Shown: positions 11,382-40,766, counted from the first letter of the stretch. The stretch is DNA of 64,000 nucleotides from Gammaproteobacteria bacterium (GCA_963665145.1 OY762064.1:2307154-2371153), one strand, 5' to 3'. Translations and numbers: made by a program. The notes: generated by a model from the sequence alone, not told the origin.

Positions 11382-11407
11382 GAAGGGCTTGATTAGAAGC
11401 GAATACC

Positions 11408-15317: not shown

Positions 15318-16418
15318 ATGCCCTACATCTGGGAACTCAAAGACTGGCCGCATTTCACATGGAATGCGGGGGTTGTCCAGGACAATAGCTATCGCTACGC
15401 GCTAACCGTCAGCCGGCTGGCCAGCGAGGTGCGAGCGCTTTCCGACCAGGAGCGCACCAACTCGATGATTGATCTGATGGTCGCCGAGGCCCGGATGACA
15501 TCGCGGATTGAGGGCGAGACTGTTGATCCCGAAGCCGTTCGCTCATCCATCCTCAAGCAACTGGGCCTGGCCGAAGAGGATCGATGGCAAGATCCATACG
15601 CTCGCGGAATCGCCCGTCTGATGGTTCTGTGCCTCCAGGATTTTGCCGAACCGCTGACCGTTGAGGGCCTATGCTCCTGGCACCGTCAATTCCTGGGCGA
15701 AAGGATGCGCAACGCTGGGCGCTGGCGTACCGAGCCGATCTGGATCGTCTCCGGCGTTGCCGGGAAAGAAAAAGTGCACTTTGAGGGGCCTCCGGCTTCG
15801 CGGGTTGCCGGCGAAATGGAAGCCTTTGTCGAGTGGTTCAACGCCAGCAGTTCATTGCCGGGACCGGTGCGCTCCGGTGTGGCCCATTTGTATTTCGAGT
15901 CCATTCATCCATTTGCGGACGGAAATGGGCGCATGGGGAGGGCAATTGCCGAGATCGCGCTGTCGCAGGAATTGGGTTACCCGGCATTGCTGAGCTTGTC
16001 CGCCGCTATTGATCGGCAACGCAAGGAGTACTACCAGATGCTCAACGAGGCCAGCCGGCAAAGCAGTATGGACATTACCGGCTGGTTGGAATGGTGGGCA
16101 CAGTGCGTCCTGAATTCCCAGGAACAGGCCAGGGAACAGATCGCGTTTGTGATTCGCAAGGCGGAGTTCTGGCGCAGCTATGAGAATCGCGTCAACGACC
16201 GCCAGGAGAAGGTGTTGGCCCGCATGTTGCGCGAAGGGCCCGAGGGCTTCAAGGGTGGCATGAGTGCCCGCAAATACGTAGGACTGACGGGTTGCTCAGG
16301 TGCAACGGCCACCCGGGATCTGTCCTTGCTCACGAAAATCGGGGCGCTCGAACGGCTGCCCGCCGGCGGGCGCAGCACGCGCTATGTGCTGCGCTTTCCG
16401 GGATCACACGCGACATAA
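15318..16418 (+). CDS. Fic family protein (DUF4172-type N-terminus, C-terminal wHTH)
   Basis: Fic motif HPFADGNGRMGRA. N-terminus YIWELKDWPHFTW is typical of the long Fic family. Confidence 0.9.
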   Translation: MPYIWELKDWPHFTWNAGVVQDNSYRYALTVSRLASEVRALSDQERTNSMIDLMVAEARMTSRIEGETVDPEAVRSSILKQLGLAEEDRWQDPYARGIARLMVLCLQDFAEPLTVEGLCSWHRQFLGERMRNAGRWRTEPIWIVSGVAGKEKVHFEGPPASRVAGEMEAFVEWFNASSSLPGPVRSGVAHLYFESIHPFADGNGRMGRAIAEIALSQELGYPALLSLSAAIDRQRKEYYQMLNEASRQSSMDITGWLEWWAQCVLNSQEQAREQIAFVIRKAEFWRSYENRVNDRQEKVLARMLREGPEGFKGGMSARKYVGLTGCSGATATRDLSLLTKIGALERLPAGGRSTRYVLRFPGSHAT

Positions 16419-20245: not shown

Positions 20246-20818
20246 CTACGCTGTCGGCCAGGCTTGGTCCCGCCGAAAGTCAATTACTCCATGACTTCTC
20301 ACAATGTTCTTGCTTATTTCCGTGTCCTGTTCACAGAAGACGATCAGGTTCATCGAACCCGTGTGTCGTGCGCTGGGCACCAGTATTCCGTCAGCGCCCA
20401 GGAAGGCGCTCGCTTCGGCCACTTGCTGAGACCGTGTGTACTCTCCGTATCGCTTCACATAGGTCAGGCGCCCAATGGATGCAGCATCCAGACTCACGGC
20501 GGCTAAAGCCCCTACGTCGGGGAAACGAATCACTGCGCTTAGAGAGACACTCAGTTCGAACAGCTCGTAATTGATGTCGATAGGCGGAATCGGCTGCCCC
20601 TGGTAGAGGTGATATCGTCGTTCCGCAATCGCCGCCTCGCGGGTTTCTGACGTGTACAGGACGTCAAACGTCCCATCGTCCCATCGTCCTCCGGAGCGCG
20701 AGCAAATGAGTGGATCGCGGCCCTCTTTGACGGAACGCCAAACGATTCCCTCGTAGGACTCCTGGGCAACAGACTCCAGGGCGTCCAGCAATCGTTGGTC
20801 GCGAATCTGCGGATCCAT
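20246..20818 (-). CDS. RES-domain toxin (MbcT/ParT-like)
   Basis: RES-domain contexts GGRWDDGTFDVLYTSETREAAIAE and ILVPSARH. Sits immediately downstream of the cognate-type antitoxin. Confidence 0.85.
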   Translation of the reverse strand: MDPQIRDQRLLDALESVAQESYEGIVWRSVKEGRDPLICSRSGGRWDDGTFDVLYTSETREAAIAERRYHLYQGQPIPPIDINYELFELSVSLSAVIRFPDVGALAAVSLDAASIGRLTYVKRYGEYTRSQQVAEASAFLGADGILVPSARHTGSMNLIVFCEQDTEISKNIVRSHGVIDFRRDQAWPTA

Positions 20819-25308: not shown

Positions 25309-27417
25309 CTACTTGACTTTCGCTTCGTCGAATGGGACTTGAAAGACCAGCGGTCGCTCAGACCTTATCCATTTCCCAAAAGCCACTGCGTGGAGTCTAG
25401 GTAGATTTGGTATCAGTTCTATATGCTCTGGGCCATAAATATTTTTCAGGAAGCCCAGGCTCGTATCGTCATAGCACGAAAAAGTGACTATGGTGTTGCA
25501 TTGCGTAAGAACAGTCTTGCTGACTGTCGCAGTTCTTTGAGCGAGGACAAGAAGGCCTACTCCATACTTCCGACCCTGGAGGGCAATTTGCGCTATCTTT
25601 CCTACAAGGCCTCTTGATTCAAAGTCACCTAAGCCCATCGTACTAGCCTCAGGCATAACCGTATGCGCCTCTTCCACGACAATCAGTGTCGGTGGGCTAC
25701 TTCCCAGCCTTTCCCTAGCGTAACGAAGCAAACACGTCATGTAGAGCTCCGTAATCCATAGTGTAGCCCTTGTGTTTGATATCTCCTCCAGTTGAATTAG
25801 CCCTACTTTCGCCTCACAAGCTGCATCCATAAACTCTGAGATCGAATCATTGACGTTTTGGCGCACACGTTCCGCAAACTCTTCGAGTGCTCTCTTTTCC
25901 GCTCCCGCTCCATACGCGCCTGTTTCTACCTCAAACAGTTTCTGTCCTAATTCGTGTGCCGTTTCTTCTTCGATTGAAAGATCTTGAGGATTAAGATCGC
26001 TGAGTCGCCCAGCGTAATGAGATGTTAGGTCGATACAAACCACTTTAAGCCCCTGCTTCACGGAGTGACGAATCAAGTCAAATGCGAGTTCAGTCTTTCC
26101 CGATCCGGTAACGCCAAGAATCGCCGTGTGGTGGTTGTAATCAGTTGAAAAAGAGCCTCCGACCTCAATCCCTGTCCTTGGTATCGTCCCCAGCACGAAA
26201 TCATTTTCAGTGACAGCAGTTGTTGAGATCTGGTCTTCATCGCGTGCGGAAAACACCGGCGAATTCATCGCAGGCAGCCAATCAACCTTTGTAAAGCCTT
26301 GTTCATGCACCAATTTTCCCAGCTGCGTGGCCGTTGCGACTTGAAAGCCATGCTTGTCAGTTGAAAAAGTCTCTTCCTTGGTCTCCCCGGATACAACTTG
26401 GTAGTGAACTTTTTCTCCAGTCACGTTTGCCCATACCAACATGCCATCATGGCAGGTGGCGCTATCGAGTGTCTCAAATCGTATTGATCCAATCGTAGAG
26501 CCCTCGACGACAAACCCTCGCAGGACCGCCCCTTCACCACCTTCGAGTGCGGCGCTTATTTCCTCAGGACTCGGAATGTCCGTGGTTTTGTCAGGATCTA
26601 TTACACAATTCCTTCTTGCGGTGAGTACTTCCGCTTCCAATTCAGTCAATAGTCCTGTCGCCAGAAGTCTGCCTTCCTGAAACTGAGAGAACAGAGGCTG
26701 AACCCAATGCGCTCGTCCATTCGGAAGAAGAGCCACTTGCGGGCATGAGTGCTCCCATACCGCCTCGCCATGCAGGGCAACTCGCAGTATGTTCGGGCTG
26801 TCTACCCTTACAATTTCGCCTATAGTTCCCGCCTCCGGTTCTGTTCTGGAGAACCATGCTGTTAACAGCTCTGGCACCCTTAGCGGCCAAATTGCAAGAA
26901 ACAATCCCCAAAAGACAATTAGAGCCAAAGTAATGGGGTCTTGCGTGTCATAGAAAAACCAAAGGGCAGAGAGAAATACCACCGAAAACAGTGTCCTTGA
27001 TCTTCCAAGAACAACTGATGGTCTATACGTAAACTTGGCCACTCTTGCTCGCCAGCCGTCGATGCTAGGGGAAGAGCTAACAGATACACAGGCTATGCTC
27101 AGTACAAGAACGACCGCGCAGAAGCCGGCAATTACATTCCATGGAACAACGGGGGCAATTCCTCGCACTGTTAGCAAAGTTATGAGTCCCATCAGCGAGT
27201 TGACGACAGAATCCGCTGGCTTGGTGTAGTGCTTCTCTAGCAGTGCTGACCCAAGCACTATTAACAACAAAGCGTTCTGAAAGAGGACCGCTTCCTTTGC
27301 ATCTGTTGGCAAATACGATCCCGTGTAAGCTTTTGCAATTAGACCGCACGTAGCGGTGGCAAACACAAGAATCAGTATGCGAACCCATGGCGCTACTGCA
27401 TTTTTCATTCTAGACAT
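25309..27417 (-). CDS. membrane-anchored HerA/FtsK-superfamily (DUF87-like) ATPase
   Basis: N-terminal ~190 aa with about six hydrophobic helices. Central beta-barrel-like region (GFVVEGSTIGSIRFE...VHYQVVSGE). Walker A ILGVTGSGKTELAFDL, Walker B TLIVVEEAHTVMPE, then LQGRKYGVGLLVLAQRTATVSKTVLTQCNTIVTF. Confidence 0.8.
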   Translation of the reverse strand: MSRMKNAVAPWVRILILVFATATCGLIAKAYTGSYLPTDAKEAVLFQNALLLIVLGSALLEKHYTKPADSVVNSLMGLITLLTVRGIAPVVPWNVIAGFCAVVLVLSIACVSVSSSPSIDGWRARVAKFTYRPSVVLGRSRTLFSVVFLSALWFFYDTQDPITLALIVFWGLFLAIWPLRVPELLTAWFSRTEPEAGTIGEIVRVDSPNILRVALHGEAVWEHSCPQVALLPNGRAHWVQPLFSQFQEGRLLATGLLTELEAEVLTARRNCVIDPDKTTDIPSPEEISAALEGGEGAVLRGFVVEGSTIGSIRFETLDSATCHDGMLVWANVTGEKVHYQVVSGETKEETFSTDKHGFQVATATQLGKLVHEQGFTKVDWLPAMNSPVFSARDEDQISTTAVTENDFVLGTIPRTGIEVGGSFSTDYNHHTAILGVTGSGKTELAFDLIRHSVKQGLKVVCIDLTSHYAGRLSDLNPQDLSIEEETAHELGQKLFEVETGAYGAGAEKRALEEFAERVRQNVNDSISEFMDAACEAKVGLIQLEEISNTRATLWITELYMTCLLRYARERLGSSPPTLIVVEEAHTVMPEASTMGLGDFESRGLVGKIAQIALQGRKYGVGLLVLAQRTATVSKTVLTQCNTIVTFSCYDDTSLGFLKNIYGPEHIELIPNLPRLHAVAFGKWIRSERPLVFQVPFDEAKVK

Positions 27418-29046: not shown

Positions 29047-29667
29047 TCAGTTACTTTGGATTGAATGACTTTCGAGTTGCGGCTTATGATGCGCATAAAA
29101 AATACTCTCCGCACGCTGAATAATGTCCGGTCTAACTAGCCGATGATAGGAGAGCTTTGGAAAGTTGTGTTCAATGGGCAGAGGATCTAATGGAAACATC
29201 CCAGTCTGCCTTGAAGTAAATGGTGTAATTCGGAAATCCCTGCAGAGTAGCTTGAGACCCTCTTTCTTCAGGAAGTCTTCAATTTTTTCAGCAAGTATGC
29301 GATCCGATCCGATATACAGCGAAATGTGCGGATTAAAGCCGTACTCTTCAATTGGATAGTCTGGTTTCCACCAAAGCCTATTTAGCCATTTGCTCCACAC
29401 TCGAATGTACACCACATAATTTCCTTGATTTTCGAACATACCAATACCATGAATCAAAAGCGGCTGATTGCCCGGCATCGCACTGAATGTTTTGAGTTTT
29501 TCTCTGGAAATTGTTTTGTTGTACGGTCCGCGAACTGTGATGTGAATATTTGTATGCCGCTCTTCGTCCGAGAACGCGGCTCGTAATCCACACAGCAAAC
29601 CGTTTATTTCAGGGTCCAATAACTCTAGGAATAAGAATTGCATTAACTTCGGTGACTTATGTCTCAT
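29047..29667 (-). CDS. 2H phosphoesterase superfamily protein (LigT/CPDase/2',5'-PDE-like)
   Basis: Two H-x-T/S-x tetrapeptides, NIHITVRG (His42) and NPHISLYIG (His114), with hydrophobic flanks and spacing typical of the 2H fold. 4-nt overlap with the upstream NTase gene. Confidence 0.7.
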   Translation of the reverse strand: MRHKSPKLMQFLFLELLDPEINGLLCGLRAAFSDEERHTNIHITVRGPYNKTISREKLKTFSAMPGNQPLLIHGIGMFENQGNYVVYIRVWSKWLNRLWWKPDYPIEEYGFNPHISLYIGSDRILAEKIEDFLKKEGLKLLCRDFRITPFTSRQTGMFPLDPLPIEHNFPKLSYHRLVRPDIIQRAESIFYAHHKPQLESHSIQSN

Positions 29668-30647
29668 AGCACCAAGTATTTCTTCATGTCAGATTTAACA
29701 CCGTTGTGCATTAGTGCCGAGTAAATGAAATCCGAGAATCTGCGCGCCGCCTCCCTTGAAACCTTGCCCAATTCCTCGGCCGGAATCTGTTCTGTTGTTC
29801 CATCCACATCCTTCCAAGACAGAAAGGACTCGTAATCATCAAGAAATTGCGTGTAGTCCTTGAGCATGCCTGAGTCGTTGAGCGCGTCTAGTCCACGTGA
29901 GAGTCTTTCAAGTGGAGTTAGGCGAACAAGGTCGAAGATGCAGTCCGCACTATGCATTTGTTCTACGAGAATTGGCAATATCGCTCCAAATACGGTTAGC
30001 TTCCGACTAAACTTCAAATTGATGTTCTTCTTTCTCCATGGTCGAGATTGATCAGATCGGATTTGTTCATAGTTCAAACAAAGCGTTCTCCAATACCTCA
30101 ATAGGTCATTTAGAAGAAATAGTGGCCGGAAGGATTGTTTCCCACTGCTGTCTCTGAAGTAGTGCGTAATAGTGCGACTCAGAGCGTCGTTGTATAGCTG
30201 CTCCCCTAAGATGCATTTGCTTTCTAAGAGCAAGAGCATTCTCGCTGTGAATAAGTTCTCGCTGTCGTCGTATGGAGCCCCAACTACTCGGAGCATTTCG
30301 TCGAGTGAATATACCTTTAGGAATTGTCCATCGTTGCTAAACGGCTCAAATTCCAGTAGCTCATTTATCTCGATGGCTGAGCTTTGTAATCGAATCTCAA
30401 TTAGACTCTCTGTCTCTTCTTCCGGACGGGTTGTTACCAAGAACAAGTCGAGATCAGATTGGGCTCCAATTTCGCCGCGTGCAAGTGAACCAGCGCAAAA
30501 GACAAACGCATCATAGTTGTTATAGATGTCAGCACGATTTGCGAATGCCTCTCGGACATCGTTTAGTCTTTTTCCTGCTTCCTCTTGTCTTTCGGATAAC
30601 CCAGGGTGTTGCCGAAGGCATTGCGTGTAAGTCGATTTTGCTGTCAT
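29664..30647 (-). CDS. Pol-beta-superfamily nucleotidyltransferase with long helical C-terminal domain
   Basis: NTase signature FVFCAGSLARGEIGAQSDLDLFLV (G-S...D-x-D), followed by ~230 aa of predicted helices. An in-frame TAA three codons upstream fixes the start. Confidence 0.75.
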   Translation of the reverse strand: MTAKSTYTQCLRQHPGLSERQEEAGKRLNDVREAFANRADIYNNYDAFVFCAGSLARGEIGAQSDLDLFLVTTRPEEETESLIEIRLQSSAIEINELLEFEPFSNDGQFLKVYSLDEMLRVVGAPYDDSENLFTARMLLLLESKCILGEQLYNDALSRTITHYFRDSSGKQSFRPLFLLNDLLRYWRTLCLNYEQIRSDQSRPWRKKNINLKFSRKLTVFGAILPILVEQMHSADCIFDLVRLTPLERLSRGLDALNDSGMLKDYTQFLDDYESFLSWKDVDGTTEQIPAEELGKVSREAARRFSDFIYSALMHNGVKSDMKKYLVL

Positions 30648-31075
30648 TTGGTGATCTTATGTTGTCGCGAACACGAAATGTCCAGTGCTGGAGGACCACA
30701 TCAGCGCAATTCTGCGGGTCCAACGGTTCCTCCAACACGTTGGTGACATTGTAGTTTCGCCTGTCCGGCTCTGGGTTTGACTGTTTCTTCATTTCCGAGC
30801 CGTGTTTGCTCCGGATGCCGCTACATGGGAAAATCCTCAGCCCGAAGGGAAGGGTTTACGGGGAAAGATCAGCCGTGCTCAACTTGCCAGTTAGCATGTT
30901 TTCGCCGCGCACGCCTATGCGCAGCGTCGCGGAATCCGTTTTTGGCGTGAAATTTCCACCTACAGGCTCGCAAAGTCAAATAGGCATCCTCGCCCTGAGG
31001 CGGCAAGCCAATCTAGCCGTGTATCAGCTCTCCTACTGACTAGCACAGGCTTGCCATACCCCGGAACAATCTATT

Positions 31076-33058
31076 ATGACCAACGGCAACGTTAACTGGA
31101 TCGCGAACTACATTTGGGGCATTTGCGACGATGTCCTCCGCGACCTCTACAGCCGCGGCAAATATCGTGACGTAATTCTGCCGATGACGGTGCTACGCCG
31201 GCTCGATGTCGTTCTTGAAAGCACCAAGCAGGCCGTCCTGGACTTGAAAGAGATGCTAGACCAAGCTGGGGTGGTCGACCAGGATGCAGCCCTTTGTCAA
31301 GCATCCGGACAGGCTTTCTACAATACCTCGAAATTCACGTTGAGCGACCTTCGTGCAAGGGCCAGTCAGGCGCAACTGAAGGCAGATTTCGAAGCCTACC
31401 TCGACGGATTTTCCTCAAACGTGCAGGAGATCCTCGACAACTTTGAGTTCCGTAACCAGATCCCACGGCTCAGCAAGGGCGACGCGCTTGGAGCCCTGAT
31501 CGAGAAGTTAACGTCCCCTGCGGTGAACCTGAGCCCCAAGCCGGTGAAGGACGCTCAAGGAAACATCAAGCTCCCCGGTCTAGACAACCATGCGATGGGT
31601 ACGATGTTCGAAGAACTCGTTCGCCGCTTCAACGAAGAGAACAACGAAGAAGCCGGCGAGCACTGGACTCCGCGCGATGCGGTCCGGCTCATGGCGAAAC
31701 TGGTGTTTCTGCCCATTGCTGACCAGATCCAGTCCACCACATACGCCCTCTATGATGGTGCTTGCGGAACCGGGGGAATGCTAACCCTCGCGGAAGAGAC
31801 GCTGGAGGAATTGGCGGCGGAACAAGGCAAAAGGGTTTCCACGGTCCTGTACGGCCAAGAAATCAACGCCGAGACCGCCGCCATATGCAAAGCTGACCTG
31901 ATGCTCAAGGGTGAGGGCGAGGCCGCCAAGAACATCGTCGGCGGGCCCGAGCACTCGACCCTGGCCAATGACGCGTTTCCGTCTCGCACTTTCGACTTCA
32001 TGCTTTCCAACCCGCCCTACGGCAAGAGTTGGAAGACCGATCTAGAGCGGATGGGCGGTAAAAAAGACATGCACGATCCGCGGTTCGTAATTGAGCACAA
32101 TGGAAGTCCCGAGTACTCGTTGGTCACCCGGTCGAGCGATGGTCAGATGTTGTTCCTAGTCAACAAGCTCTCTAGGATGAAGCAGGACACGCTGCTCGGC
32201 AGCCGCATCGCCGAGGTCCATAACGGCAGTGCACTCTTTACCGGAGCTGCTGGCCAGGGTGAGAGCAACATTCGCCGCTGGATTATCGAGAACGACTGGT
32301 TAGAAGCCATCGTCGCCCTGCCGCTTAACCTGTTCTATAACACGGGCATTGCCACCTACGTGTGGGTGCTAACGAACCGGAAGCCGGAGCACCGCAGGGG
32401 CAAGGTACAGTTGATCGACGCGACCCAATGGTTCCAGCCATTGCGCAAAAGCCTAGGGAAGAAGAATTGCGTGCTCGGCGAGGATGACATCGCGCGGATT
32501 AGCCGTACGTTCTTGGATTTCGAGGAGACTGAGCAGAGCATGATCTTCGAAAACGACACTTTCGGGTACTGGAAGGTACCAGTCGAGCGACCCCTTCGCG
32601 TTGATGGTGCTGAACTGGAACGCGCCTACACAGCGGCAGAGATCAAGGCGCTCAAAGAAAGTGGCGAATGCAGCGAAAATGCCCCGCCGGTCATCCGCAA
32701 GATTCACAAGCGCGGGGTTAAGGCCGACCCGATTCACGGGCTACATGAGACGACGATTGGCGGCCAGCTGGTTGTCGTGGAATACGAACCGGACCGTCAA
32801 TTGCGGGACACTGAGCAGGTTCCGCTTCAGGAGGAAGGAGGGATTAAGGCATTCCTGGAGCGCGAGGTTCTTCCCTACGCTGAGGACGCCTGGTACAAGC
32901 CGAACGCCGTCAAGATCGGTTATGAAATTAGCTTCACGCGTTATTTTTATAAGCCGAAGCTAATGCGCACGCTAGATGAGATTCGGGCCGATCTCCTCGC
33001 GTTGGAAGAGGAGACAGAAGGGGTGCTCGGAGATATTTTGGGAAGCGCCAACACATGA
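31076..33058 (+). CDS. hsdM: type I restriction-modification system DNA methyltransferase subunit
   Basis: AdoMet motif YDGACGTGGML and catalytic LSNPPYGKSW. HsdM-type N-terminal helical domain. 660 aa. Confidence 0.92.
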   Translation: MTNGNVNWIANYIWGICDDVLRDLYSRGKYRDVILPMTVLRRLDVVLESTKQAVLDLKEMLDQAGVVDQDAALCQASGQAFYNTSKFTLSDLRARASQAQLKADFEAYLDGFSSNVQEILDNFEFRNQIPRLSKGDALGALIEKLTSPAVNLSPKPVKDAQGNIKLPGLDNHAMGTMFEELVRRFNEENNEEAGEHWTPRDAVRLMAKLVFLPIADQIQSTTYALYDGACGTGGMLTLAEETLEELAAEQGKRVSTVLYGQEINAETAAICKADLMLKGEGEAAKNIVGGPEHSTLANDAFPSRTFDFMLSNPPYGKSWKTDLERMGGKKDMHDPRFVIEHNGSPEYSLVTRSSDGQMLFLVNKLSRMKQDTLLGSRIAEVHNGSALFTGAAGQGESNIRRWIIENDWLEAIVALPLNLFYNTGIATYVWVLTNRKPEHRRGKVQLIDATQWFQPLRKSLGKKNCVLGEDDIARISRTFLDFEETEQSMIFENDTFGYWKVPVERPLRVDGAELERAYTAAEIKALKESGECSENAPPVIRKIHKRGVKADPIHGLHETTIGGQLVVVEYEPDRQLRDTEQVPLQEEGGIKAFLEREVLPYAEDAWYKPNAVKIGYEISFTRYFYKPKLMRTLDEIRADLLALEEETEGVLGDILGSANT

Positions 33059-34386
33059 ATCCTGTACTAAGGCCCTACCTGAAGAAAAGAAGCTCTGGGA
33101 TCGAATGGTTGGGGGACATTCCTAGTCATTGGAACGTAGTGAAGGGAAAGCACTTGTTTCGGTGCGTAGATGAACGATCGTTGACTGGCGGCGAAGAGTT
33201 GTTGACCGTATCTTCAGATCGTGGCGTGGTTCCTCGGGCGTCCGCCTCGGTGACAATGTTCAAGGCAGATTCTTACGTCGGGCACAAGCTGTGTTGGCCG
33301 GGAGATTTGGTCATCAACAGCTTGTGGGCTTGGGGAGGAGGACTCGGGTTTTCAAAGTACCATGGACTCGTTAGCTCTGCGTACGGCGTTTATCGTTTGC
33401 GCAACTCTGCTGCCCATGACACCGCTTATTTTCATAGACTTCTTCGGTCACTCCCGTTCAACTTCGAATTACGGGTTCGTTCGAAAGGGATATGGACGTC
33501 ACGGCTGCAGTTGACTAATGGAGCGTTTCTTGCTGCACCGATACTCCTACCTCCTTACCCCGAACAAACTGCTATCGCTGGCTTTCTTGACCATGTAGAC
33601 CGCCGGATCCAGAAATACATCCGCGCTAAGGAAAAGCTGATTGCATTACTGAAGGAACATCGTTTGGCAGCGACGGCAGAAACGATGCAGCAACGAAACG
33701 CGCCAAGACTAAGACTAGGCGTTGTCGCTGAGCCAATCAAGAGACCCGTTTCTCGCGTCAGTGACAAATCGTATGTTCCTATTGGTCTTTTTAATCGCGG
33801 CAGAGGGATTTTCAAAAAACAACCTCGACGTGGTAACGAACTGGGTGACTCCGATTTTTTTTGGGTACGGGAGGGGGACCTCGTCATTAGTGGTCAATTT
33901 GCGTGGGAAGGGGCGGTGGCCTTAGCCGGCAAGGCAGAGGATGGATGCGTAGCAACTCACCGTTATCCAATACTACGCGGCAGGGCCGGAGTTCTCGAAA
34001 CTGGATACTTGCTGTCTTTTCTCCAAACTGATTGGGGGCAATTGCTTCTTGACCATCATTCACGGGGTGCAGCAGGCAGAAACCGGCCACTCAATGCCCG
34101 GACTCTTGCGAAAGAGAAGATTCCAATTCCACTGCTTGATCACCAGACCATAATCAAATGCATGTTGCAGCACGAAACCGGCATTCGCTCGCAGGTGCAG
34201 CGTTGGAAGTTGTTGTTTGAGGAATTCCGTACCCGGCTCATTGCCGATGCTGTAACTGGCAAACTCGATGTCCGCGAAGTAGCCGCAAACCTTCCTAAGC
34301 TAGATTATCTTGACGACGATGGCGCCAGTGACGTCTTGAACAGCGAGGGCATGCTTGACCTAGACGAGGCAACTGCTAGGACGTAG
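33055..34386 (+). CDS. hsdS: type I restriction-modification system specificity subunit
   Basis: Two target-recognition halves, each followed by a conserved helix (LPPYPEQTAIAGFLDHVDRRIQKYI and IPIPLLDHQTIIKCMLQHETGIRSQV...AVTGKLDVRE). ATGA overlap with hsdM. Confidence 0.85.
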   Translation: MNPVLRPYLKKRSSGIEWLGDIPSHWNVVKGKHLFRCVDERSLTGGEELLTVSSDRGVVPRASASVTMFKADSYVGHKLCWPGDLVINSLWAWGGGLGFSKYHGLVSSAYGVYRLRNSAAHDTAYFHRLLRSLPFNFELRVRSKGIWTSRLQLTNGAFLAAPILLPPYPEQTAIAGFLDHVDRRIQKYIRAKEKLIALLKEHRLAATAETMQQRNAPRLRLGVVAEPIKRPVSRVSDKSYVPIGLFNRGRGIFKKQPRRGNELGDSDFFWVREGDLVISGQFAWEGAVALAGKAEDGCVATHRYPILRGRAGVLETGYLLSFLQTDWGQLLLDHHSRGAAGRNRPLNARTLAKEKIPIPLLDHQTIIKCMLQHETGIRSQVQRWKLLFEEFRTRLIADAVTGKLDVREVAANLPKLDYLDDDGASDVLNSEGMLDLDEATART

Positions 34387-34397
34387 TCTGCCAGCCC

Positions 34398-37300
34398 ATG
34401 ACCACAGACACCTCCGAACGTGGCCTCGAACGCCTGATATGCATGGCGTTGGCTGGGGATTCATGCGAGCCCCCCAAAGGGCCGACTGTCGCCGAACCTG
34501 TTGCTGCTTGGGGCGGCATTGGCTGGAGCCCGGGCAACTTTCATCACTACGACCGCGAGTTTTGCATCGATCTGCTCCAACTCGCCGCGTTTCTGGAACT
34601 TACTCAATCTCGTACTATGAGTTCGCTCAACCTTGCCGAAGACAGCCCTACACGGCGCAAGTTTCTGGCACGGCTGCAGCGTGAGGTCAGCAAGCGGGGC
34701 AGCATTGATATCTTGCGCCATGGCATCAAACATGGCCCGCACCACCTGGATCTCTTCTACGGTACGCCTTCTCCCGGCAACGAGAAAGCAAAGAAACGAT
34801 TCGAGAAGAATCGATTCACCGTTACCCGGCAACTGCGCTACAGTCGCGACGAGGCACAGCGTGCTCTGGACATCGTGCTGTTCATCAACGGCCTGCCGAT
34901 ACTCACGTTCGAACTGAAGAACAGCCTTACCAAGCAGACTGTCGATGACGCTATCGAGCAGTACAAACGAGACCGAAATCCACGCGAAAAGCTGTTCGAG
35001 TTCGGCCGCTGCGTGGCTCATTTCGCGGTGGACGACCACGAGGTACGCTTCTGCACGCACCTGAAGGGTAAAGGATCTTGGTTTCTACCCTTCAATCTAG
35101 GCTGGAACGATGGGGCCGGAAATCCGCCTAACTCTATGGGAATCAAGTCTGACTACCTGTGGCGCAAGGTGCTCGCCCGCGAGAGTTTGACAAACATCCT
35201 GGAAAACTACGCCCAGGTGGTCGAGTCTAAGGACGAAAAGACCGGTCGCAAGAAAAAAACCCAAATCTGGCCCCGCTATCACCAACTGGACGTGGTGCAG
35301 CATCTGCTCTCCAATGTCGCGGAAAACGGTGCAGGAAAGCGTTACCTCATCCAGCATTCCGCCGGCAGCGGTAAGAGCTACTCGATTGCCTGGCTGGCCC
35401 ATCAACTGATCGGTCTGAAGCATGGAGGGTTTACGGCTTTCGATTCCATAATTGTCGTGACCGACCGGCGCATCCTCGACAAGCAGATTCGCGACACGAT
35501 CAAGCAGTACGCTCAGGTTGGCGCGACGGTCGGGCATGCCAAACGATCTGGCGATCTCCGCCGGTTCCTTGAGGACGGCAAGAAGATCATCGTATCGACG
35601 GTGCAGAAGTTTCCCTTCATCCTCAATGAGATCGGAAACGAGCAGCGCGGACGTCGGTTCGCGATCATTATCGATGAGGCTCATTCCAGTCAAGGCGGTC
35701 GCACCAGCGCGGCTATGTCAGGGGCGCTTTCCGAAGCCGGCCGGGTCGACGAGGAAGAAACCTATGAAGACCGCATCAACAAGCTGATGGAGTCCCACAA
35801 GCTCCTGTTCAACGCGAGCTATTTTGCGTTCACTGCGACTCCCAAGAATAAGACACTGGAGATTTTTGGTGATGCAGATCCGCAGGCGGACGGCAGAGTA
35901 GAGCATCGAGCCTTCCACAGCTACACCATGAAACAGGCCGTCCAGGAGGGGTTCATTCTGGACGTGCTGACCCACTACACGCCGATATCGAGTTACTACA
36001 AGCTCACCAAGACCATCGAAGAAGACCCCAAGTTCGACACCCAAAAGGCGCAGAAGAAGCTGCGTCGCTTCGTCGAAGGGCACGAGCACGCAATCCGAGC
36101 CAAGGCCGAGATCATGGTTGACCACTTTCACGATCAGGTGATTCGGCAGAACAAGATCGGCGGCGAGGCACGGGCGATGGTCGTTACCAACGGCATCGAA
36201 AGGGCCGTCCAGTACTTCCACGCCATACGCGACTACCTCAAAGAGCGCAAGAGCCCGTTTAAGGCGATCGTAGCCTTTTCCGGGGAGCACGAGTTTGGCG
36301 GGAAGTCCGAGACCGAGGCCAGTTTGAACGGTTTTCCGTCCGCAAAGATTGCGGAGCGCTTCCGGGAACACCCCTACCGGTTCCTGGTTTGCGCCGACAA
36401 GTTTCAGACTGGCTACGACGAGCCGCTATTGCACACCATGTATGTGGACAAGACGCTCGCCGGCATCAAGGCAGTGCAGACGCTGTCTAGGTTGAACCGG
36501 GCCCGTCCCAACAAGCACGATGTATTCGTATTGGACTTCCTCAACGATTCTGAAACCATCCAGATCGCTTTCGAACCCTTCTACCGTGGAACGGTACTCG
36601 CCGACCAGACGGACCCCAACAAGCTGCACGACCTAGTGGCCGATTTGGACGGCGCGCAGGTTTACTCCGATGAGCAAATCGACAGCTTGGTTTCCCAGTA
36701 TCTCGACGGAGCGGACCGGGACCGGCTCGATCCGATCCTCAACGATTGCGTGGCTTCCTATAAGAGCGATCTCGACGAAGACGGCCAGATCCGCTTCAAA
36801 GGTAAAGCAAAGGCGTTCGTGCGGACCTATGCGTTTCTCGGTTGCGTGCTCCCCTACAACAACCCTGGGTGGGAAAAGCGCTCCATCTTCCTGAATTTCC
36901 TGATCCCCAAACTTCCGTCACCGGAGGAAGACGATCTCTCCAGGGGCATTCTCGAAGCGATTGACATGGACAGCTACCGCGTCGAGAAGCGCGCAACGCA
37001 AACGATCCTTCTAGAGGACGAAGAAGGCGAGATCGGACCTGTGCCCACATCTGGCATGGGTGGACGGCCGGAGCCCGAGATGGACCCGTTATCGGAGATT
37101 TTGCGGGATTTCAACGATCGGTTCGGCGACATCGAATGGGAAGATGCAGATCGCGTCCGCGCTTTGATCGCCGAGACCATCCGCTCACGAGTAGCCGACG
37201 ACGAAGCTTACCGAAACGCCCGGGAAAACTCCGACAAGGAAAACGCCCGCGTGGAGCACGACCGCGCTCTGCTCCGCGTGATGACTTCGCTAATGAAGGA

Positions 37301-37400
37301 CGATACGCAGCTGTTCAAACTGTTCATGGACGATCCAGGGTTCAAGCGGTGGCTGACGGAAAAGATTTTCCATCTGACCTACTACGAAGCCGGTGTCTAA
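34398..37400 (+). CDS. hsdR: type I restriction endonuclease R subunit (SF2 helicase/translocase)
   Basis: Walker A IQHSAGSGKS, DEAH box IIIDEAHSSQGG, FTATPKN, motif VI QTLSRLNR. 1000 aa. Confidence 0.92.
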   Translation: MTTDTSERGLERLICMALAGDSCEPPKGPTVAEPVAAWGGIGWSPGNFHHYDREFCIDLLQLAAFLELTQSRTMSSLNLAEDSPTRRKFLARLQREVSKRGSIDILRHGIKHGPHHLDLFYGTPSPGNEKAKKRFEKNRFTVTRQLRYSRDEAQRALDIVLFINGLPILTFELKNSLTKQTVDDAIEQYKRDRNPREKLFEFGRCVAHFAVDDHEVRFCTHLKGKGSWFLPFNLGWNDGAGNPPNSMGIKSDYLWRKVLARESLTNILENYAQVVESKDEKTGRKKKTQIWPRYHQLDVVQHLLSNVAENGAGKRYLIQHSAGSGKSYSIAWLAHQLIGLKHGGFTAFDSIIVVTDRRILDKQIRDTIKQYAQVGATVGHAKRSGDLRRFLEDGKKIIVSTVQKFPFILNEIGNEQRGRRFAIIIDEAHSSQGGRTSAAMSGALSEAGRVDEEETYEDRINKLMESHKLLFNASYFAFTATPKNKTLEIFGDADPQADGRVEHRAFHSYTMKQAVQEGFILDVLTHYTPISSYYKLTKTIEEDPKFDTQKAQKKLRRFVEGHEHAIRAKAEIMVDHFHDQVIRQNKIGGEARAMVVTNGIERAVQYFHAIRDYLKERKSPFKAIVAFSGEHEFGGKSETEASLNGFPSAKIAERFREHPYRFLVCADKFQTGYDEPLLHTMYVDKTLAGIKAVQTLSRLNRARPNKHDVFVLDFLNDSETIQIAFEPFYRGTVLADQTDPNKLHDLVADLDGAQVYSDEQIDSLVSQYLDGADRDRLDPILNDCVASYKSDLDEDGQIRFKGKAKAFVRTYAFLGCVLPYNNPGWEKRSIFLNFLIPKLPSPEEDDLSRGILEAIDMDSYRVEKRATQTILLEDEEGEIGPVPTSGMGGRPEPEMDPLSEILRDFNDRFGDIEWEDADRVRALIAETIRSRVADDEAYRNARENSDKENARVEHDRALLRVMTSLMKDDTQLFKLFMDDPGFKRWLTEKIFHLTYYEAGV

Positions 37401-38146
37401 TGGGCGCCAGTTATCCAACCAAACTGACCCTTGCATTTCGTAGTGGTGACCGATGCGCCTTTCCGGTCTGCGATCGAGCACTTTCCGCTGGCGGGGAAGG
37501 ATCAAGCCCCATAGTGACGGGTGTTGCCGCACACATTGTGGGAGAAAAACCAGGGTCTGCTCGCTTCGATGCTGCGATGCCCGCAGAGCAACGCAATAGT
37601 CATGACAACTTGATCTACCTATGCAGAGATCACCATGACTTAATTGATAAGAGAGAAGAAGAGTTCCCTGTCGAAAGGCTACGCCGCATGAAGCAGGAGC
37701 ATGAGGCGAGGGTGCTTGAGGCAGTAACCCAGGCATTCGCCTCTGTGGGCTTTTCGGAACTCGAAGTAGCGACTCACGCTTTGTTGCAGTCGGAACTAGG
37801 AGAAGTGAGTCGGGATTTCTCGCTGACTGCATTGAATAACAAGATCAAGAAAAACGCACTGGGAATCAATTCGCGGATCATCATAACGTCGGGACTAAGC
37901 TTGTCGGGAGAAATTCAAAACTTCATTGAGTGCGTTGCACAAACCGACGAGCATTTCGCAGAGAGACTTAAGCTAGGATTTCTCAGCGAATACCATCGCC
38001 TTAGAAAAGAAGGCCACTTTGGCGACGTGCTTTTCGAACTAATGTGCCGCTTCGCTCAAGAAGGATTTAGCGAACAGGCGAGTCGATCTGCTGCACTTGC
38101 AATCTTGATCTACTTATTCGAGACTTGCGAAGTATTCGAGAAATGA
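37400..38146 (+). CDS. HNH endonuclease fused to an ABC-three-component-system-type C-terminal domain (effector component)
   Basis: CAFPVCDR...AAHIVGEKPGSARFD...HDNLIYLCRDHHDLIDK (CxxC...H...N...CxxHH). Helical C-terminal domain ending LIYLFETCEVFEK. Start ATG shares its A with the hsdR TAA (TAATG). Confidence 0.7.
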   Translation: MGASYPTKLTLAFRSGDRCAFPVCDRALSAGGEGSSPIVTGVAAHIVGEKPGSARFDAAMPAEQRNSHDNLIYLCRDHHDLIDKREEEFPVERLRRMKQEHEARVLEAVTQAFASVGFSELEVATHALLQSELGEVSRDFSLTALNNKIKKNALGINSRIIITSGLSLSGEIQNFIECVAQTDEHFAERLKLGFLSEYHRLRKEGHFGDVLFELMCRFAQEGFSEQASRSAALAILIYLFETCEVFEK

Positions 38147-38370
38147 TTTTACCGTCAAAGCACATCTCAGAGGATCAGACAGTTCTGGGAATTGGTGCCC
38201 TCCTTTTGCAGTACCTAGATCGGCCACAGACGGTCACTAGTCTTTGGAACAAAGTACGGAATGAGCGCGTGGTGGGCACATTCGAACGATTTGTTGTGAC
38301 GCTAGACTTTCTCTATATCATCGGATTGGTCGTGTTATCCCATGGCACGATTCGCAAGTTGGTGCCATGA
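38143..38370 (+). CDS. small middle-component-like protein of the ABC-three-component module
   Basis: 75 aa. ATGA overlaps at both ends. Position between effector and ABC ATPase matches the described ABC-3C gene order. The sequence itself is not diagnostic. Confidence 0.55.
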   Translation: MILPSKHISEDQTVLGIGALLLQYLDRPQTVTSLWNKVRNERVVGTFERFVVTLDFLYIIGLVVLSHGTIRKLVP

Positions 38371-40127
38371 TCCACGGCATAACCGCCAACCACGACTCCT
38401 TTCATGCCGTGGAATTCACAACGGGTCTCAACGTAATCCTCGCTGAGCGCTCGGCTGCGGCAACGGAGAAAGACACGAGGAACGGGCTTGGGAAATCCAC
38501 GCTCATAGAGATTATCCACTTTTGTCTTGGCAGCCGTGCTGATAAAGGCAAGGGTCTCTCGATTGATGCTTTGAATGACTGGACTTTCACGGTTGATCTC
38601 ACGCTGTCCGGCAATCGAGTTAGAGCTACCAGGGCCGTAGCCGATCCCAATCGGGTTCTGATTGAAGGCCCCACCGGAGGCTGGATTGAGCAACCGGAAA
38701 GTGACGACTTGTTGCGTCAGCGTTCGTTCAAAGTTGAACGATGGCGAACTCTACTTGGATGGTCGCTGTTCGGCTTGCATCCGTTGGAAGGTAAGAGCTC
38801 CTATCGACCTAAGTATCGTAGTTTGATTTCGTATTTCATCCGACGTGGACCCGATGCCTACGTTAGCCCCTTTCGACACTTTCGACAGCAAAACACCTGG
38901 GACATACAGCTTCACATTGCTTATCTGCTAGGTATGAACTGGGAATATGCGGCCCAATGGCAGAAATTGAAGGATAGAGCAGCTGCAATCAGCGCAGTTC
39001 AAAAGGCCAAAAAAACAGGCGCCTTGGATGGTTCAATTAGCAGTATCGGAGAATTAGAGACTCAGGTAATTCAGCTCGAACAACAGGCCAGCGTGGCAAG
39101 GAACGCGTTGGACAATTTCAAAGTCCATCCACAATATGAAGCACTGCAAAGGGATGCCGATGGCCTGACCAGTCAGGTACATGAGTCAACTAACCGTAAT
39201 GTTGCTGATCGGCGGCGACTAACACGATACAAAGAGTCAATCAGGGAGGAGAAGCCGCCAAGCAGAATTTCTTTGAAGAAAATATACGAGGAATGCGGCG
39301 TGGTGTTTTCTGCAACTTTGCAGCGGTCGCTGGATCAAGCAAGAACCTTTCATGACGAGATCATTTCCAATAGGCGCGCGTTCTTGAGCGCTGAGATCAA
39401 GAATCTACGCGAAACCATTAGACAGCGAAACGGCAAGATCAAGACACTTACCGATAAGCGCGCGGAAGTCTTGCAGGTACTTGAGACACACGGCGCCCTA
39501 CAGGAGATGACCAGTTTGCGTGAGCAGTTCGTTAAACAGCAAGAGTCGCTTGAGCGAGCCCGAACTCACTTAAGTGAATTGAAGGAGTTAAATTCGTCTA
39601 AACGCGACATCAAGAAAAACACAGAAGAATTGTTGCGATTGGCGGAGCAAGATCATGAGGATAGAAGACAAGTTTGGTCTGAGGCCGTCCGCCTGTTCAA
39701 CGAGTATTCTCAGGTACTCTATGAGTCTCCCGGGAAGCTGGTCATTGACGTTAGCGATACAGGATACAAGTATCGGGTTGATATAGAAAGAAGCGGTAGC
39801 GAAGGCATCGAGAAAATGAAGGTATTCTGTTTTGACTTGTTGGCATTACGTTTGCGAAGAAAGGCGAGTAACGGCTTAAATTTCCTTATTCACGACTCTT
39901 TGGTTTACGACTCTGTAGACAGCAGACAACGCGCACTAGCGTTGGAGCAAGCGCATCGCATTACGACTGCGGTAGGTGGACAGTACATCTGTGCAATTAA
40001 TTCAGACATGGTCCCCAGCAAGGACTTTAGTGATGAATTCGAATTCAATCGGCATGTGCGCCTTACCCTATCCGATGCGAAGCCAGCAGGGAGCTTACTG
40101 GGCATACGATTTGAGGCGTCGATTTGA
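38367..40127 (+). CDS. ABC/SMC-like ATPase with coiled-coil insert (DUF2326/YydD-like, ABC-3C ATPase component)
   Basis: N-terminal FTTGLNVILAERSAAATEKDTRNGLGKSTLIEIIHFCLG (Walker A). ~200 aa of heptad-like coiled coil. C-terminal FLIHDSLVYDSVD (Walker B/D-loop). Confidence 0.75.
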   Translation: MIHGITANHDSFHAVEFTTGLNVILAERSAAATEKDTRNGLGKSTLIEIIHFCLGSRADKGKGLSIDALNDWTFTVDLTLSGNRVRATRAVADPNRVLIEGPTGGWIEQPESDDLLRQRSFKVERWRTLLGWSLFGLHPLEGKSSYRPKYRSLISYFIRRGPDAYVSPFRHFRQQNTWDIQLHIAYLLGMNWEYAAQWQKLKDRAAAISAVQKAKKTGALDGSISSIGELETQVIQLEQQASVARNALDNFKVHPQYEALQRDADGLTSQVHESTNRNVADRRRLTRYKESIREEKPPSRISLKKIYEECGVVFSATLQRSLDQARTFHDEIISNRRAFLSAEIKNLRETIRQRNGKIKTLTDKRAEVLQVLETHGALQEMTSLREQFVKQQESLERARTHLSELKELNSSKRDIKKNTEELLRLAEQDHEDRRQVWSEAVRLFNEYSQVLYESPGKLVIDVSDTGYKYRVDIERSGSEGIEKMKVFCFDLLALRLRRKASNGLNFLIHDSLVYDSVDSRQRALALEQAHRITTAVGGQYICAINSDMVPSKDFSDEFEFNRHVRLTLSDAKPAGSLLGIRFEASI

Positions 40128-40263: not shown

Positions 40264-40337
40264 TGGGCCGTGAGGGAATCGAACCCGCAACCAATGGATT
40301 AAGAGTCCACTGCTCTACCTAGTTGAGCTAACGGCCC
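40264..40337 (-). tRNA. tRNA-Lys (anticodon CTT), no encoded CCA, one T-stem mismatch
   Basis: Hand-folded cloverleaf: GGGCCGT/ACGGCCC acceptor, GCTC/GAGC D-stem, anticodon loop CTCTTAA, T-loop TTCGATT. C50:T64 is unpaired. The 3' flank is TCA, not CCA. Confidence 0.8.
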
Positions 40338-40443
40338 GTTGTGTGCAGGAAGTGCTCCTGCGGAAGGGGTGCAATATTGCCACAGGATTGCTCGTGCGGA
40401 GCGGTTCAAGTGAGGGCGGGGCGACCTCTTTCCCAGGAAAAGG

Positions 40444-40520
40444 TGGGGTGGACGATGGGATTCGAACCCACGACGACCAGATCCACAATCTGGGGCTCTA
40501 CCAACTGAGCTACGCCCACC
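40444..40520 (-). tRNA. tRNA-His (anticodon GTG) with G-1 and encoded CCA
   Basis: Hand-folded. Extra 5' G pairing with discriminator C, anticodon loop TTGTGGA, T-loop TTCGAAT, terminal CCA. Confidence 0.9.
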
Positions 40521-40569
40521 ACGGTTGATGCTTGCCGCCCGGCACGCCGCTTCGTGCCGTTTCGGCCGA

Positions 40570-40646
40570 TGGCGCGCCTGGCAGGACTCGAACCTGCAAC
40601 CACCGGCTTAGAAGGCCGATGCTCTATCCGGTTGAGCTACAGGCGC
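40570..40646 (-). tRNA. tRNA-Arg (anticodon TCT) with encoded CCA
   Basis: Hand-folded. GCGCCTG/CAGGCGC acceptor, anticodon loop CTTCTAA, T-loop TTCGAGT, terminal GCCA. Confidence 0.9.
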
Positions 40647-40689
40647 ATCGACTGGTTAATCCGGGAATGCGGCGGCCCGTTTAGCGCAG

Positions 40690-40766
40690 TGGTCGGGGTA
40701 AACGGATTTGAACCGTTGACCTTCTGCTCCCAAAGCAGACGCGCTACCAGACTGCGCCATACCCCG
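40690..40766 (-). tRNA. tRNA-Pro (anticodon TGG) with encoded CCA
   Basis: Hand-folded. CGGGGTA/TACCCCG acceptor, anticodon stem-loop TCTGC-TTTGGGA-GCAGA, T-loop TTCAAAT, terminal ACCA. Confidence 0.9.

Follow-up and report, generated by a model that had tools for sequence, protein, structure and literature searches.

Defence genes nested within type I restriction–modification (RM) operons are already known. The textbook example is PrrC, a single protein with an anticodon-nuclease domain, which targets tRNA-Lys and is always linked to an RM system; it is held latent by the type Ic enzyme EcoprrI, is activated by a T4 anti-restriction peptide (PMC1484252), and represents a second line of defence that fires upon restriction evasion (PMC1484252, PMC3458546). 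The "guilt-by-embedding" approach yielded 145 phage-defence candidates (Payne, Hughes, Fineran & Jackson, 2024, bioRxiv 10.1101/2024.01.29.577857), and one of these, PDC-M68, was nominated via members embedded in BREX, DISARM, or type I RM systems. In Table S8 of that study, PDC-M68 is the two-family entry CAS_00212 (adjacent number 33), the three-gene entry CAS_00240 (number 24) falls under the cut-off of the paper, and another ABC-three-component (ABC-3C) candidate, with an MC2 component, appears in a figure. ABC-3C systems, whose defining features are taken here from Pfam family descriptions and from papers citing the original description, have been equated in the literature with type II Lamassu (LmuA–LmuC–LmuB; also DdmABC), which has been validated and structurally solved; HNH is among the effector domains listed for LmuA (PMC10586767), and the Walker B motif of LmuB is deviant, with Gln in place of the catalytic Glu. 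Here, we consider six genes at positions 31076–40127 of a 64,000-nucleotide stretch of DNA from a Gammaproteobacteria bacterium (GCA_963665145.1 OY762064.1:2307154-2371153), referred to below as the window, in which the type I genes hsdM, hsdS, and hsdR are followed by a cassette encoding an HNH effector, a small middle component, and an ABC ATPase. A preliminary description of this DNA, made from the sequence alone, took type I genes to form stand-alone operons and ABC-3C systems to be purely computational; given the studies cited above, both premises are outdated.

According to our analysis, the six-gene cluster is a new instance of a known, catalogued nesting, with an unusual position of the cassette after hsdR and a new host RM lineage. 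The cassette matches both PADLOC profiles of PDC-M68 over their full length in adjacent genes; however, in the window it is appended after the last hsd gene, rather than nested between host genes, and the RM lineage that hosts it is otherwise devoid of the cassette. The two halves likely are two autonomous modules in one composite operon, co-regulated and co-transferred, with the Lamassu-like cassette grafted 3′ of the type I RM system.

All six genes lie on the plus strand. The type I half comprises hsdM (31076–33058, 660 aa), hsdS (33055–34386, 443 aa), and hsdR (34398–37400, 1000 aa), and the cassette comprises the LmuA-like HNH effector (37400–38146, 248 aa), the LmuC-like ABC-3C middle component MC6 (38143–38370, 75 aa), and the LmuB-like DUF2326/YydD-type ABC ATPase (38367–40127, 586 aa). 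Read base by base, the junctions are ATGA between hsdM and hsdS (33055–33058), an 11-nt gap between hsdS and hsdR (34387–34397), TAATG between hsdR and the effector gene (37398–37402), where the start of the latter overlaps the stop of the former, and ATGA both between the effector gene and MC6 (38143–38146) and between MC6 and the ATPase gene (38367–38370). The gene and junction coordinates of the preliminary description are thus exact when compared with the list of open reading frames (ORFs) and the raw sequence, its domain identities agree with the Pfam and PADLOC assignments for all six genes, and the tight coupling it reported is borne out by genes packed like a single operon. Its claim that there is no room for a promoter between hsdR and the HNH gene holds insofar as the stop and start codons overlap, but a promoter could still lie within the 3′ end of hsdR.

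Bacterial operons commonly feature four-base overlaps of stop and start codons, and the pattern seen here, while genuine, is statistically unremarkable by itself. None of the six gene starts is preceded by an obvious Shine–Dalgarno sequence, which fits translational coupling. The operon promoter is presumed to reside in the 428-nt intergenic region upstream of hsdM (30648–31075, plus strand, read directly in the sequence), as this is the sole sizeable non-coding gap ahead of the cluster; a scan with the sigma-70 consensus found no site in it. The promoter and terminator scan of the region from 30 to 41.5 kb yielded counts at or below the shuffle expectation, and nothing decisive between the genes or past position 40127. 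Taking the layout as a whole, co-expression of the six genes is plausible, and they probably form a single transcript.

The three hsd genes are predicted to encode a complete type I RM system. HsdM contains an N6-adenine methyltransferase domain (Pfam N6_Mtase, 1e-49) and the HsdM N-terminal domain (HsdM_N, 8e-23), and is matched by the PADLOC profile MTase_I (7e-233). HsdS is matched by two PADLOC Specificity_I profiles (2e-56 and 5e-53), each with two matched stretches spanning both halves of the protein, as expected for two target-recognition regions; the Pfam Methylase_S match is weak (4e-6). HsdR combines an N-terminal PD-(D/E)xK nuclease with a superfamily 2 translocase (Pfam HSDR_N, 2e-22; SWI2_SNF2, 2e-28; ResIII; T1R_D3-like), and its nuclease motif, D...ELK followed by the QY motif, is readily seen in the sequence at approximately residues 158–187. 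We also considered an HsdR devoid of its own nuclease activity and borrowing that of the HNH protein; this candidate was ruled out, the PD-(D/E)xK motif being intact.

The cassette has the gene order of ABC-3C systems, that is, effector, small middle component, and ABC ATPase. The profile PDC-M68A covers residues 1–247 of the effector (profile positions 1–251 of 253; PADLOC, 1e-82), and PDC-M68B covers residues 1–582 of the ATPase (profile positions 1–581 of 581; 4e-212). The N-terminal part of the effector is an HNH nuclease domain: it is matched by Pfam HNH_2 (23.1 bits against the cut-off of 21 bits) and by PADLOC SAVED_HNH (5e-25), and the sequence search against PDB matches residues 7–111 to Cap5 and HNH proteins, the best match being Cap5 (7rwk, 2e-8). 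Residues His45, Asn70, and His79 are invariant or nearly so among the homologues. The AlphaFold2 model (predicted local distance difference test, pLDDT, 85) consists of the HNH domain followed by an all-helical C-terminal domain, and a Foldseek search with this model retrieves Cap5 tetramers, matched over the HNH part alone. The Pfam CTD10 match of the C-terminal part is weak (21.9 bits, under the cut-off of 28.1 bits).

The effector frame is open upstream of position 37400 as far as the ATG at 37136, and the start at 37400 is supported by approximately 120 homologues with lengths of 248–259 aa, whose alignments begin at residue 1. The public gene call (P0150) is only 152 aa long, with 100% identity over 61% of the 248-aa ORF; hence it contains no part of the HNH domain, misses the overlap with hsdR, and creates an apparent gap after the latter. 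The corrected start is therefore of value for annotation, since the public call conceals the nuclease domain.

The middle component is a member of the recognized family MC6 (Pfam, 1.3e-14; 54.3 bits against the cut-off of 27.2), and its homologues are labelled "ABC-three component system middle component 6" in the NCBI annotation. The third protein is matched by Pfam DUF2326 (6e-36) and, weakly, by the PADLOC LmuB profile (9e-17). Its AlphaFold2 model (pLDDT 81) has a split ABC head with long coiled-coil helices at residues 192–452, and in the Foldseek search it is most similar to YydD (6e-27), then to LmuB chains (9uxh, 9hqx, 9hqu, 9nyg, 9ux7; 3e-14 to 1e-11), and then to SMC and Rad50; thus, it is an SMC/Rad50-like ABC ATPase with a coiled-coil insert. 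The protein features the Walker A motif NGLGKST, the signature SGSEG, and a deviant Walker B motif, FLIHD-S/T, which lacks the catalytic Glu: Asp510 does not vary, and the alignment consensus has Ser or Thr after it. The DUF2326 ATPase is presumed to serve as both sensor and scaffold. The CTD10 model, describing the effector C-terminus, also matches the ATPase coiled coil (residues 289–385, 3.6e-5), and most ATPase homologues carry the same match in precomputed annotations; it may be an artefact of helical repeats, or the effector tail and the ATPase arm may share a helical module.

Taken together, these features identify the cassette as a Lamassu-like ABC-3C system of the MC6/DUF2326 branch. 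It shares with type II Lamassu the gene order (effector, middle component, SMC/Rad50-like ATPase) and, in the ATPase, the coiled-coil insert, the Walker B motif without catalytic Glu, and the fold of the LmuB chains. The effector may also have the two-part build known from Lamassu, an enzymatic N-terminal domain combined with a docking C-terminal domain, the CTD10 match in the window being sub-threshold. At the same time, the Walker B deviation is analogous rather than identical, with Ser/Thr in the window ATPase and Gln in LmuB; the ATPase is of the DUF2326/YydD type, whereas LmuB is of the DUF3732 type; and the family labels differ, MC6 and CTD10 in the window against MC3 and CTD7/CTD12.

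Two other systems are related to single components. The best structural match of the ATPase, over the full length, is YydD from the Bacillus subtilis YydB–YydD pair (integrative model PDB:9a6c; TM-score 0.59); DUF2326 is common to both proteins, and homologues of the window ATPase are named "YydD" by JGI, but the sequence identity is only 18%. YydB, the partner of YydD, is a phosphoesterase rather than an HNH nuclease, and the pair is not known to be linked to type I RM systems. By both sequence and fold, the closest match of the effector's HNH domain is that of Cap5, a SAVED–HNH effector of the cyclic oligonucleotide-based antiphage signalling systems (CBASS), which is activated by oligomerization. 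Unlike Cap5, the window effector has no SAVED sensor domain, featuring a helical C-terminal domain of the ABC-3C type instead, and no cyclase gene is found nearby.

In order to see how often this arrangement recurs, we used the ATPase, which has more than 1,400 homologues, and took 80 species-representative loci with 10-kb flanks, 44 of them with full flanks. Type I genes were identified at these loci by jackhmmer seeded with the window HsdM and HsdR over all ORFs, followed by Pfam; jackhmmer with the window HsdS gave no match in the 80 loci, and HsdS proteins there were identified by Pfam. The effector–MC6–ATPase triad with overlapping junctions is retained in nearly all of the 80 loci. Recurrence in other genomes, on which the preliminary description had staked its proposal, is observed: same-strand type I genes occur within 10 kb of the cassette in 19 out of 80 loci, often with 4-nt overlaps, and in 14 out of 44 fully flanked ones. 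The former count should be read as a minimum, since short contigs are common in the set and divergent type I families might have escaped the search.

The most frequent arrangement, seen in 11 loci (L002, L003, L004, L006, L009, L019, L026, L048, L049, L054, L056), is hsdM–hsdS–[cassette]–(other cargo)–hsdR, that is, strict nesting of the cassette between hsd genes on the same strand, as, e.g., in L002 and L056; ten of the 44 fully flanked loci have the order hsdM–hsdS–[cassette]–hsdR. In three loci (L013, L014, L016), only hsdR is present, downstream of the cassette; in three more (L010, L053, L060), hsdM lies upstream and the contig then ends; and in two loci hsdR lies upstream, as in the window, either directly adjacent (L011) or approximately 2.4 kb away (L055). 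The adjacency in other loci is often tighter than in the window: a Methylase_S gene is located directly upstream of the HNH gene with a 4-nt overlap in six loci (L004, L006, L009, L010, L019, L026), and in L004 and L013 the end of the ATPase gene and the beginning of hsdR have 4 nt in common.

Some of these operons carry more than the cassette. In the related type I operons of L048 (6675–8945) and L049 (7056–8768), the cassette and further cargo reside together between hsdM and hsdR. The additional gene encodes an AAA_13 ABC ATPase (5e-184) in L048 and a HerA/DUF87 ATPase in L049; in L048, the cassette is also followed by a gene for a Schlafen/AlbA_2 protein. In both operons, several accessory modules are thus stacked. 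Two loci show signs of decay or traffic within composite operons. In L073 (8144–10001), the ATPase match lacks everything before residue 74, and the 1.6 kb that separate it from MC6 contain a 433-aa ORF, which makes an insertion likely. In L016 (12647–13915), an IS110-family transposase separates the cassette from hsdR.

Another type of variation concerns the effector itself. In the cyanobacterial loci L062, L069, L074, L078, and L080, the effector is conserved only from residue ~95 to 248, and its N-terminus is different. In a somewhat broader, mostly cyanobacterial set (these five loci together with L057, L065, and L077), only this C-terminal part is kept upstream of MC6, and an additional conserved gene of ~237 aa is found upstream. 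The pattern is reminiscent of effector swapping, with the docking domain kept constant.

Despite its recurrence, the link to type I systems is far from obligate. No same-strand type I genes were found within 10 kb in 30 of the 44 fully flanked loci, and stand-alone cassettes occur on plasmids, for example, in Rhizobium lusitanum and on a conjugative plasmid of Pseudomonas. Among all 80 loci, not all of them fully flanked, the cassette also neighbours other defence genes, in particular, those of Tiamat TmtA (L027), an HKD–Snf2/DrmD-like helicase (L061), a type IIG enzyme (L022), and a type II/III methyltransferase (L070). Moreover, the type I systems that host the cassette fall into at least five divergent lineages: one of ten loci, whose HsdR proteins are 63–93% identical among themselves, another formed by L048, L049, L073, and L011, and several singletons, in addition to the system of the window. 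HsdR identity between the host lineages is 23–35%, and the window HsdR is only 23–30% identical to the HsdR proteins of all other cassette-hosting loci. The position of the cassette within the operon also varies, being after hsdS, after hsdM, or after hsdR. Divergent host families combined with varied positions make a conserved interface unlikely.

To characterize the host lineage of the window, we considered the 80 closest metagenomic relatives of its HsdR (63–76% identity, loci L081–L160). None of these 80 loci contains the cassette, but their operons carry other cargo at the hsdM/hsdS, hsdS/hsdR, and post-hsdR positions, so that the type I family of the window is a busy cargo carrier. GmrSD-like genes of ~600 aa are found between hsdM and hsdS in many loci (e.g., L091, L100, L101, L119, L129, L143); RhuM–Fic or Macro-domain genes, between hsdS and hsdR (L084, L106); and genes of PHP–ABC and other ABC ATPases, DruA-like proteins, and Schlafen/AlbA_2 proteins, directly after hsdR (L093, L096, L098, L152). 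The GC content at third codon positions (GC3) in the window cluster is 0.70 for hsdM and 0.71 for hsdR, compared with 0.51, 0.55, and 0.53 for the HNH, MC6, and ATPase genes, respectively, indicating a mosaic operon onto which the cassette was grafted later. The hsdS gene (0.51) looks as foreign to hsdM and hsdR as the cassette does, perhaps owing to swapping of specificity genes. We also considered the cassette as an ancestral part of the window RM family; this was ruled out by its absence from the 80 relatives and by the difference in GC3.

Overall, the coupling between the cassette and type I RM systems is loose. As the cassette mostly stands alone, associates with at least five host lineages, and is absent from the 80 relatives of the window HsdR, a specific interaction between HsdR and the effector appears less likely.

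Under our preferred interpretation, autonomous modules sharing one operon, the type I enzyme would form the first layer of defence, methylating self DNA and cutting unmodified incoming DNA. In the resting cassette, the dimer of the DUF2326 ATPase together with MC6 would keep the HNH effector inactive via its C-terminal domain. Release of the effector would be triggered by aberrant phage or plasmid DNA, e.g., free ends or replication intermediates, and the freed effector would oligomerize and degrade DNA indiscriminately, thus aborting the infection. The joining of the two halves would then represent embedding of an accessory defence cassette, providing shared regulation, joint horizontal transfer, and a combination of a first-line and a back-up layer, and a dedicated HsdR–effector complex would not be required. 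Both the Lamassu-type activation, proposed by analogy, and the layered defence by the two halves are inferred here.

Several observations weigh against this interpretation. The Lamassu-type activation is an extrapolation, since the effector C-terminal domain is unmatched and the ATPase is only distantly related to LmuB. Indeed, the Foldseek search found no structural match of this domain to anything solved, including the C-terminal domains of LmuA, and the profile search against the solved DUF3732/LmuB proteins yielded only a marginal match at Walker A (E = 0.011), which is why the fold comparison was used instead. In the literature searched, we found no experimental report on PDC-M68 or the MC6/DUF2326 branch. 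As for the single transcript, a weak match to the promoter consensus is present on the plus strand at 38294–38321, at the chance level for the consensus scan, and a promoter may reside within the cassette or the 3′ part of hsdR. Finally, in the neighbour-joining tree of the ATPases, approximately two thirds of the assessable members of the window's clade are found within type I operons, whereas another large clade has no members in type I operons; and in the ten-member RM family, the pairwise identities of the ATPases and HsdR proteins are correlated (Pearson 0.90, Spearman 0.81), although the pairs come from one lineage and are not independent, so that the p-value is nominal only. The correlation holds down to 52% identity of the ATPases and 63% identity of HsdR, and the lineage spans Gammaproteobacteria, Thermodesulfobacteriota, Latescibacterota, and Myxococcota. 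The ten-locus composite has long travelled as one unit. The clade bias and the co-diversification, neither of which, like the association itself, is discussed individually for PDC-M68 by Payne et al. (2024), exceed casual hitch-hiking and leave room for functional coupling.

Such coupling could mean that, in the clade of the window, PDC-M68 is a functionally dependent second arm of type I restriction, acting either by sensing DNA ends or stalled HsdR, or by being held by the RM enzyme in the manner of EcoprrI and PrrC. This would explain the two-thirds bias of the clade, the re-association with unrelated type I families (the window, L011), and the co-diversification with HsdR across phyla; all considered, we regard it as unlikely. 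The sequence comparison is compatible alike with an autonomous cassette, with one guarded like PrrC, and with one alerted through DNA, and argues only that a conserved HsdR–effector interface is unlikely.

One specific form of dependence is a relay through DNA, without contact between the two modules, where double-strand ends produced by HsdR on unmodified DNA, or stalled translocation complexes, would trigger the SMC-like ATPase; restriction would thereby be amplified into destruction by the HNH effector, with synergy that depends on cleavage by HsdR. Lamassu complexes of solved structure bind DNA ends, which activate them, the nuclease motif of the window HsdR is intact, and the long-term linkage in one lineage also fits; further, such a relay is compatible with many host RM lineages, as it does not need a conserved protein interface. 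Yet for PDC-M68 it is purely inferential, any chromosomal RM system would suffice, making tight operon linkage unnecessary, stand-alone cassettes are common, and self-killing each time restriction succeeds would waste its benefit. We find such a relay decidedly unlikely.

The other form is a guard of the PrrC type, in which the type I enzyme would physically silence the ABC/HNH module, and the latter, as an abortive arm dedicated to the RM system, would fire when Ocr-, ArdA-, or Stp-like anti-restriction proteins of a phage disable or stall the restriction complex. The precedent is direct, as PrrC from a type Ic operon is kept latent via EcoprrI until the T4 inhibitor activates it (PMC1484252), and, like PrrC (as well as RloC; PMC1484252, PMC3458546), the window module is a putative suicide effector based on an ABC ATPase and genetically nested with hsd genes. 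The repeated tight nesting of the cassette in type I operons, the predominance of the type I context in the window's ATPase clade, and the finding that cassette and HsdR have co-diversified across phyla in one lineage agree with this scheme. However, the always RM-linked PrrC is a single polypeptide that joins an N-terminal ABC NTPase domain to a C-terminal anticodon nuclease, whereas the window module consists of three separate proteins, its nuclease domain is of the HNH DNase type, and an RM system accompanies it in only about one third of loci (14 of the 44 fully flanked ones); no cluster protein matched PrrC or RloC profiles in Pfam or PADLOC. At least 30 of the 44 fully flanked loci are devoid of same-strand type I genes within 10 kb, plasmid copies stand alone, and the cassette is found in none of the 80 nearest relatives of the window HsdR. 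In addition, the divergence of the host families and the variable position of the cassette speak against a conserved interface, and Lamassu-type ATPases possess a DNA sensor of their own. The guard is, in our opinion, quite improbable.

Finally, it is very improbable that the two halves are fortuitous neighbours, brought together by clustering of defence genes beside a tRNA hotspot without regulatory or functional meaning: although the cluster ends a low-GC island beside a tRNA-Lys gene, this island also contains genes of SoFic, a RES protein, a HerA-like ATPase, and a PDC-M70A-like protein, and the GC3 mismatch points to parts of different origins, the TAATG overlap leaves zero intergenic space between hsdR and the effector gene, and the cassette recurs in type I operons of many unrelated taxa with 4-nt overlaps, far above what is expected at random in a neighbourhood of ~20 kb.

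If the halves merely share an operon, the cluster is another example of type I operons serving as landing pads for accessory defence cassettes. If they cooperate, it would provide a second, DNA-targeting counterpart of the PrrC–EcoprrI paradigm, link restriction to a Lamassu-type SMC sensor, and offer a tractable system for studying the trigger of Lamassu-like modules. Cooperation is worth testing because the cassette and HsdR of one lineage have diversified together across phyla, and we consider this lineage-specific, co-diversifying tie between a Lamassu-like cassette and type I restriction to be the most notable part of the results.

The six-gene cluster closes a low-GC defence island that extends from ~10 to 40.3 kb of the window and abuts a tRNA cluster; the GC content is ~50–57% over 10–40 kb, compared with 62–66% in the flanks. 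The right-hand edge of the island is the tRNA-Lys(CTT) gene (40264–40337, minus strand, ARAGORN), which belongs to a minus-strand cluster of four tRNA genes (40264–40766; Lys-CTT, His-GTG, Arg-TCT, Pro-TGG) that bounds the island and at which the GC content rises from ~48% to ~65%. The direct-repeat search over 9–41 kb revealed no tRNA-derived attachment (att) repeat, and the island ORFs that were scanned included no integrase, which gives no basis for defining the island as an integrative element. Upstream of the cluster, the low-GC region looks like a defence island, with genes encoding a SoFic-like Fic protein (15318–16418; PADLOC, 2e-43), a RES-domain toxin (20246–20818, minus strand), a 702-aa HerA-like ATPase (25309–27417, minus strand; PADLOC HerA, 6e-23), and a PDC-M70A-like nucleotidyltransferase (5e-29) with an overlapping 206-aa partner to which no family was assigned (together 29047–30647, minus strand). 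The left edge of the low-GC region (10329–13526) is formed by three tandem paralogues (350, 350, and 357 aa), each of them encoding a trypsin-like peptidase (Trypsin_2), with repeated segments that recur with a period of ~1.06 kb and are ~68–87% identical at the DNA level.

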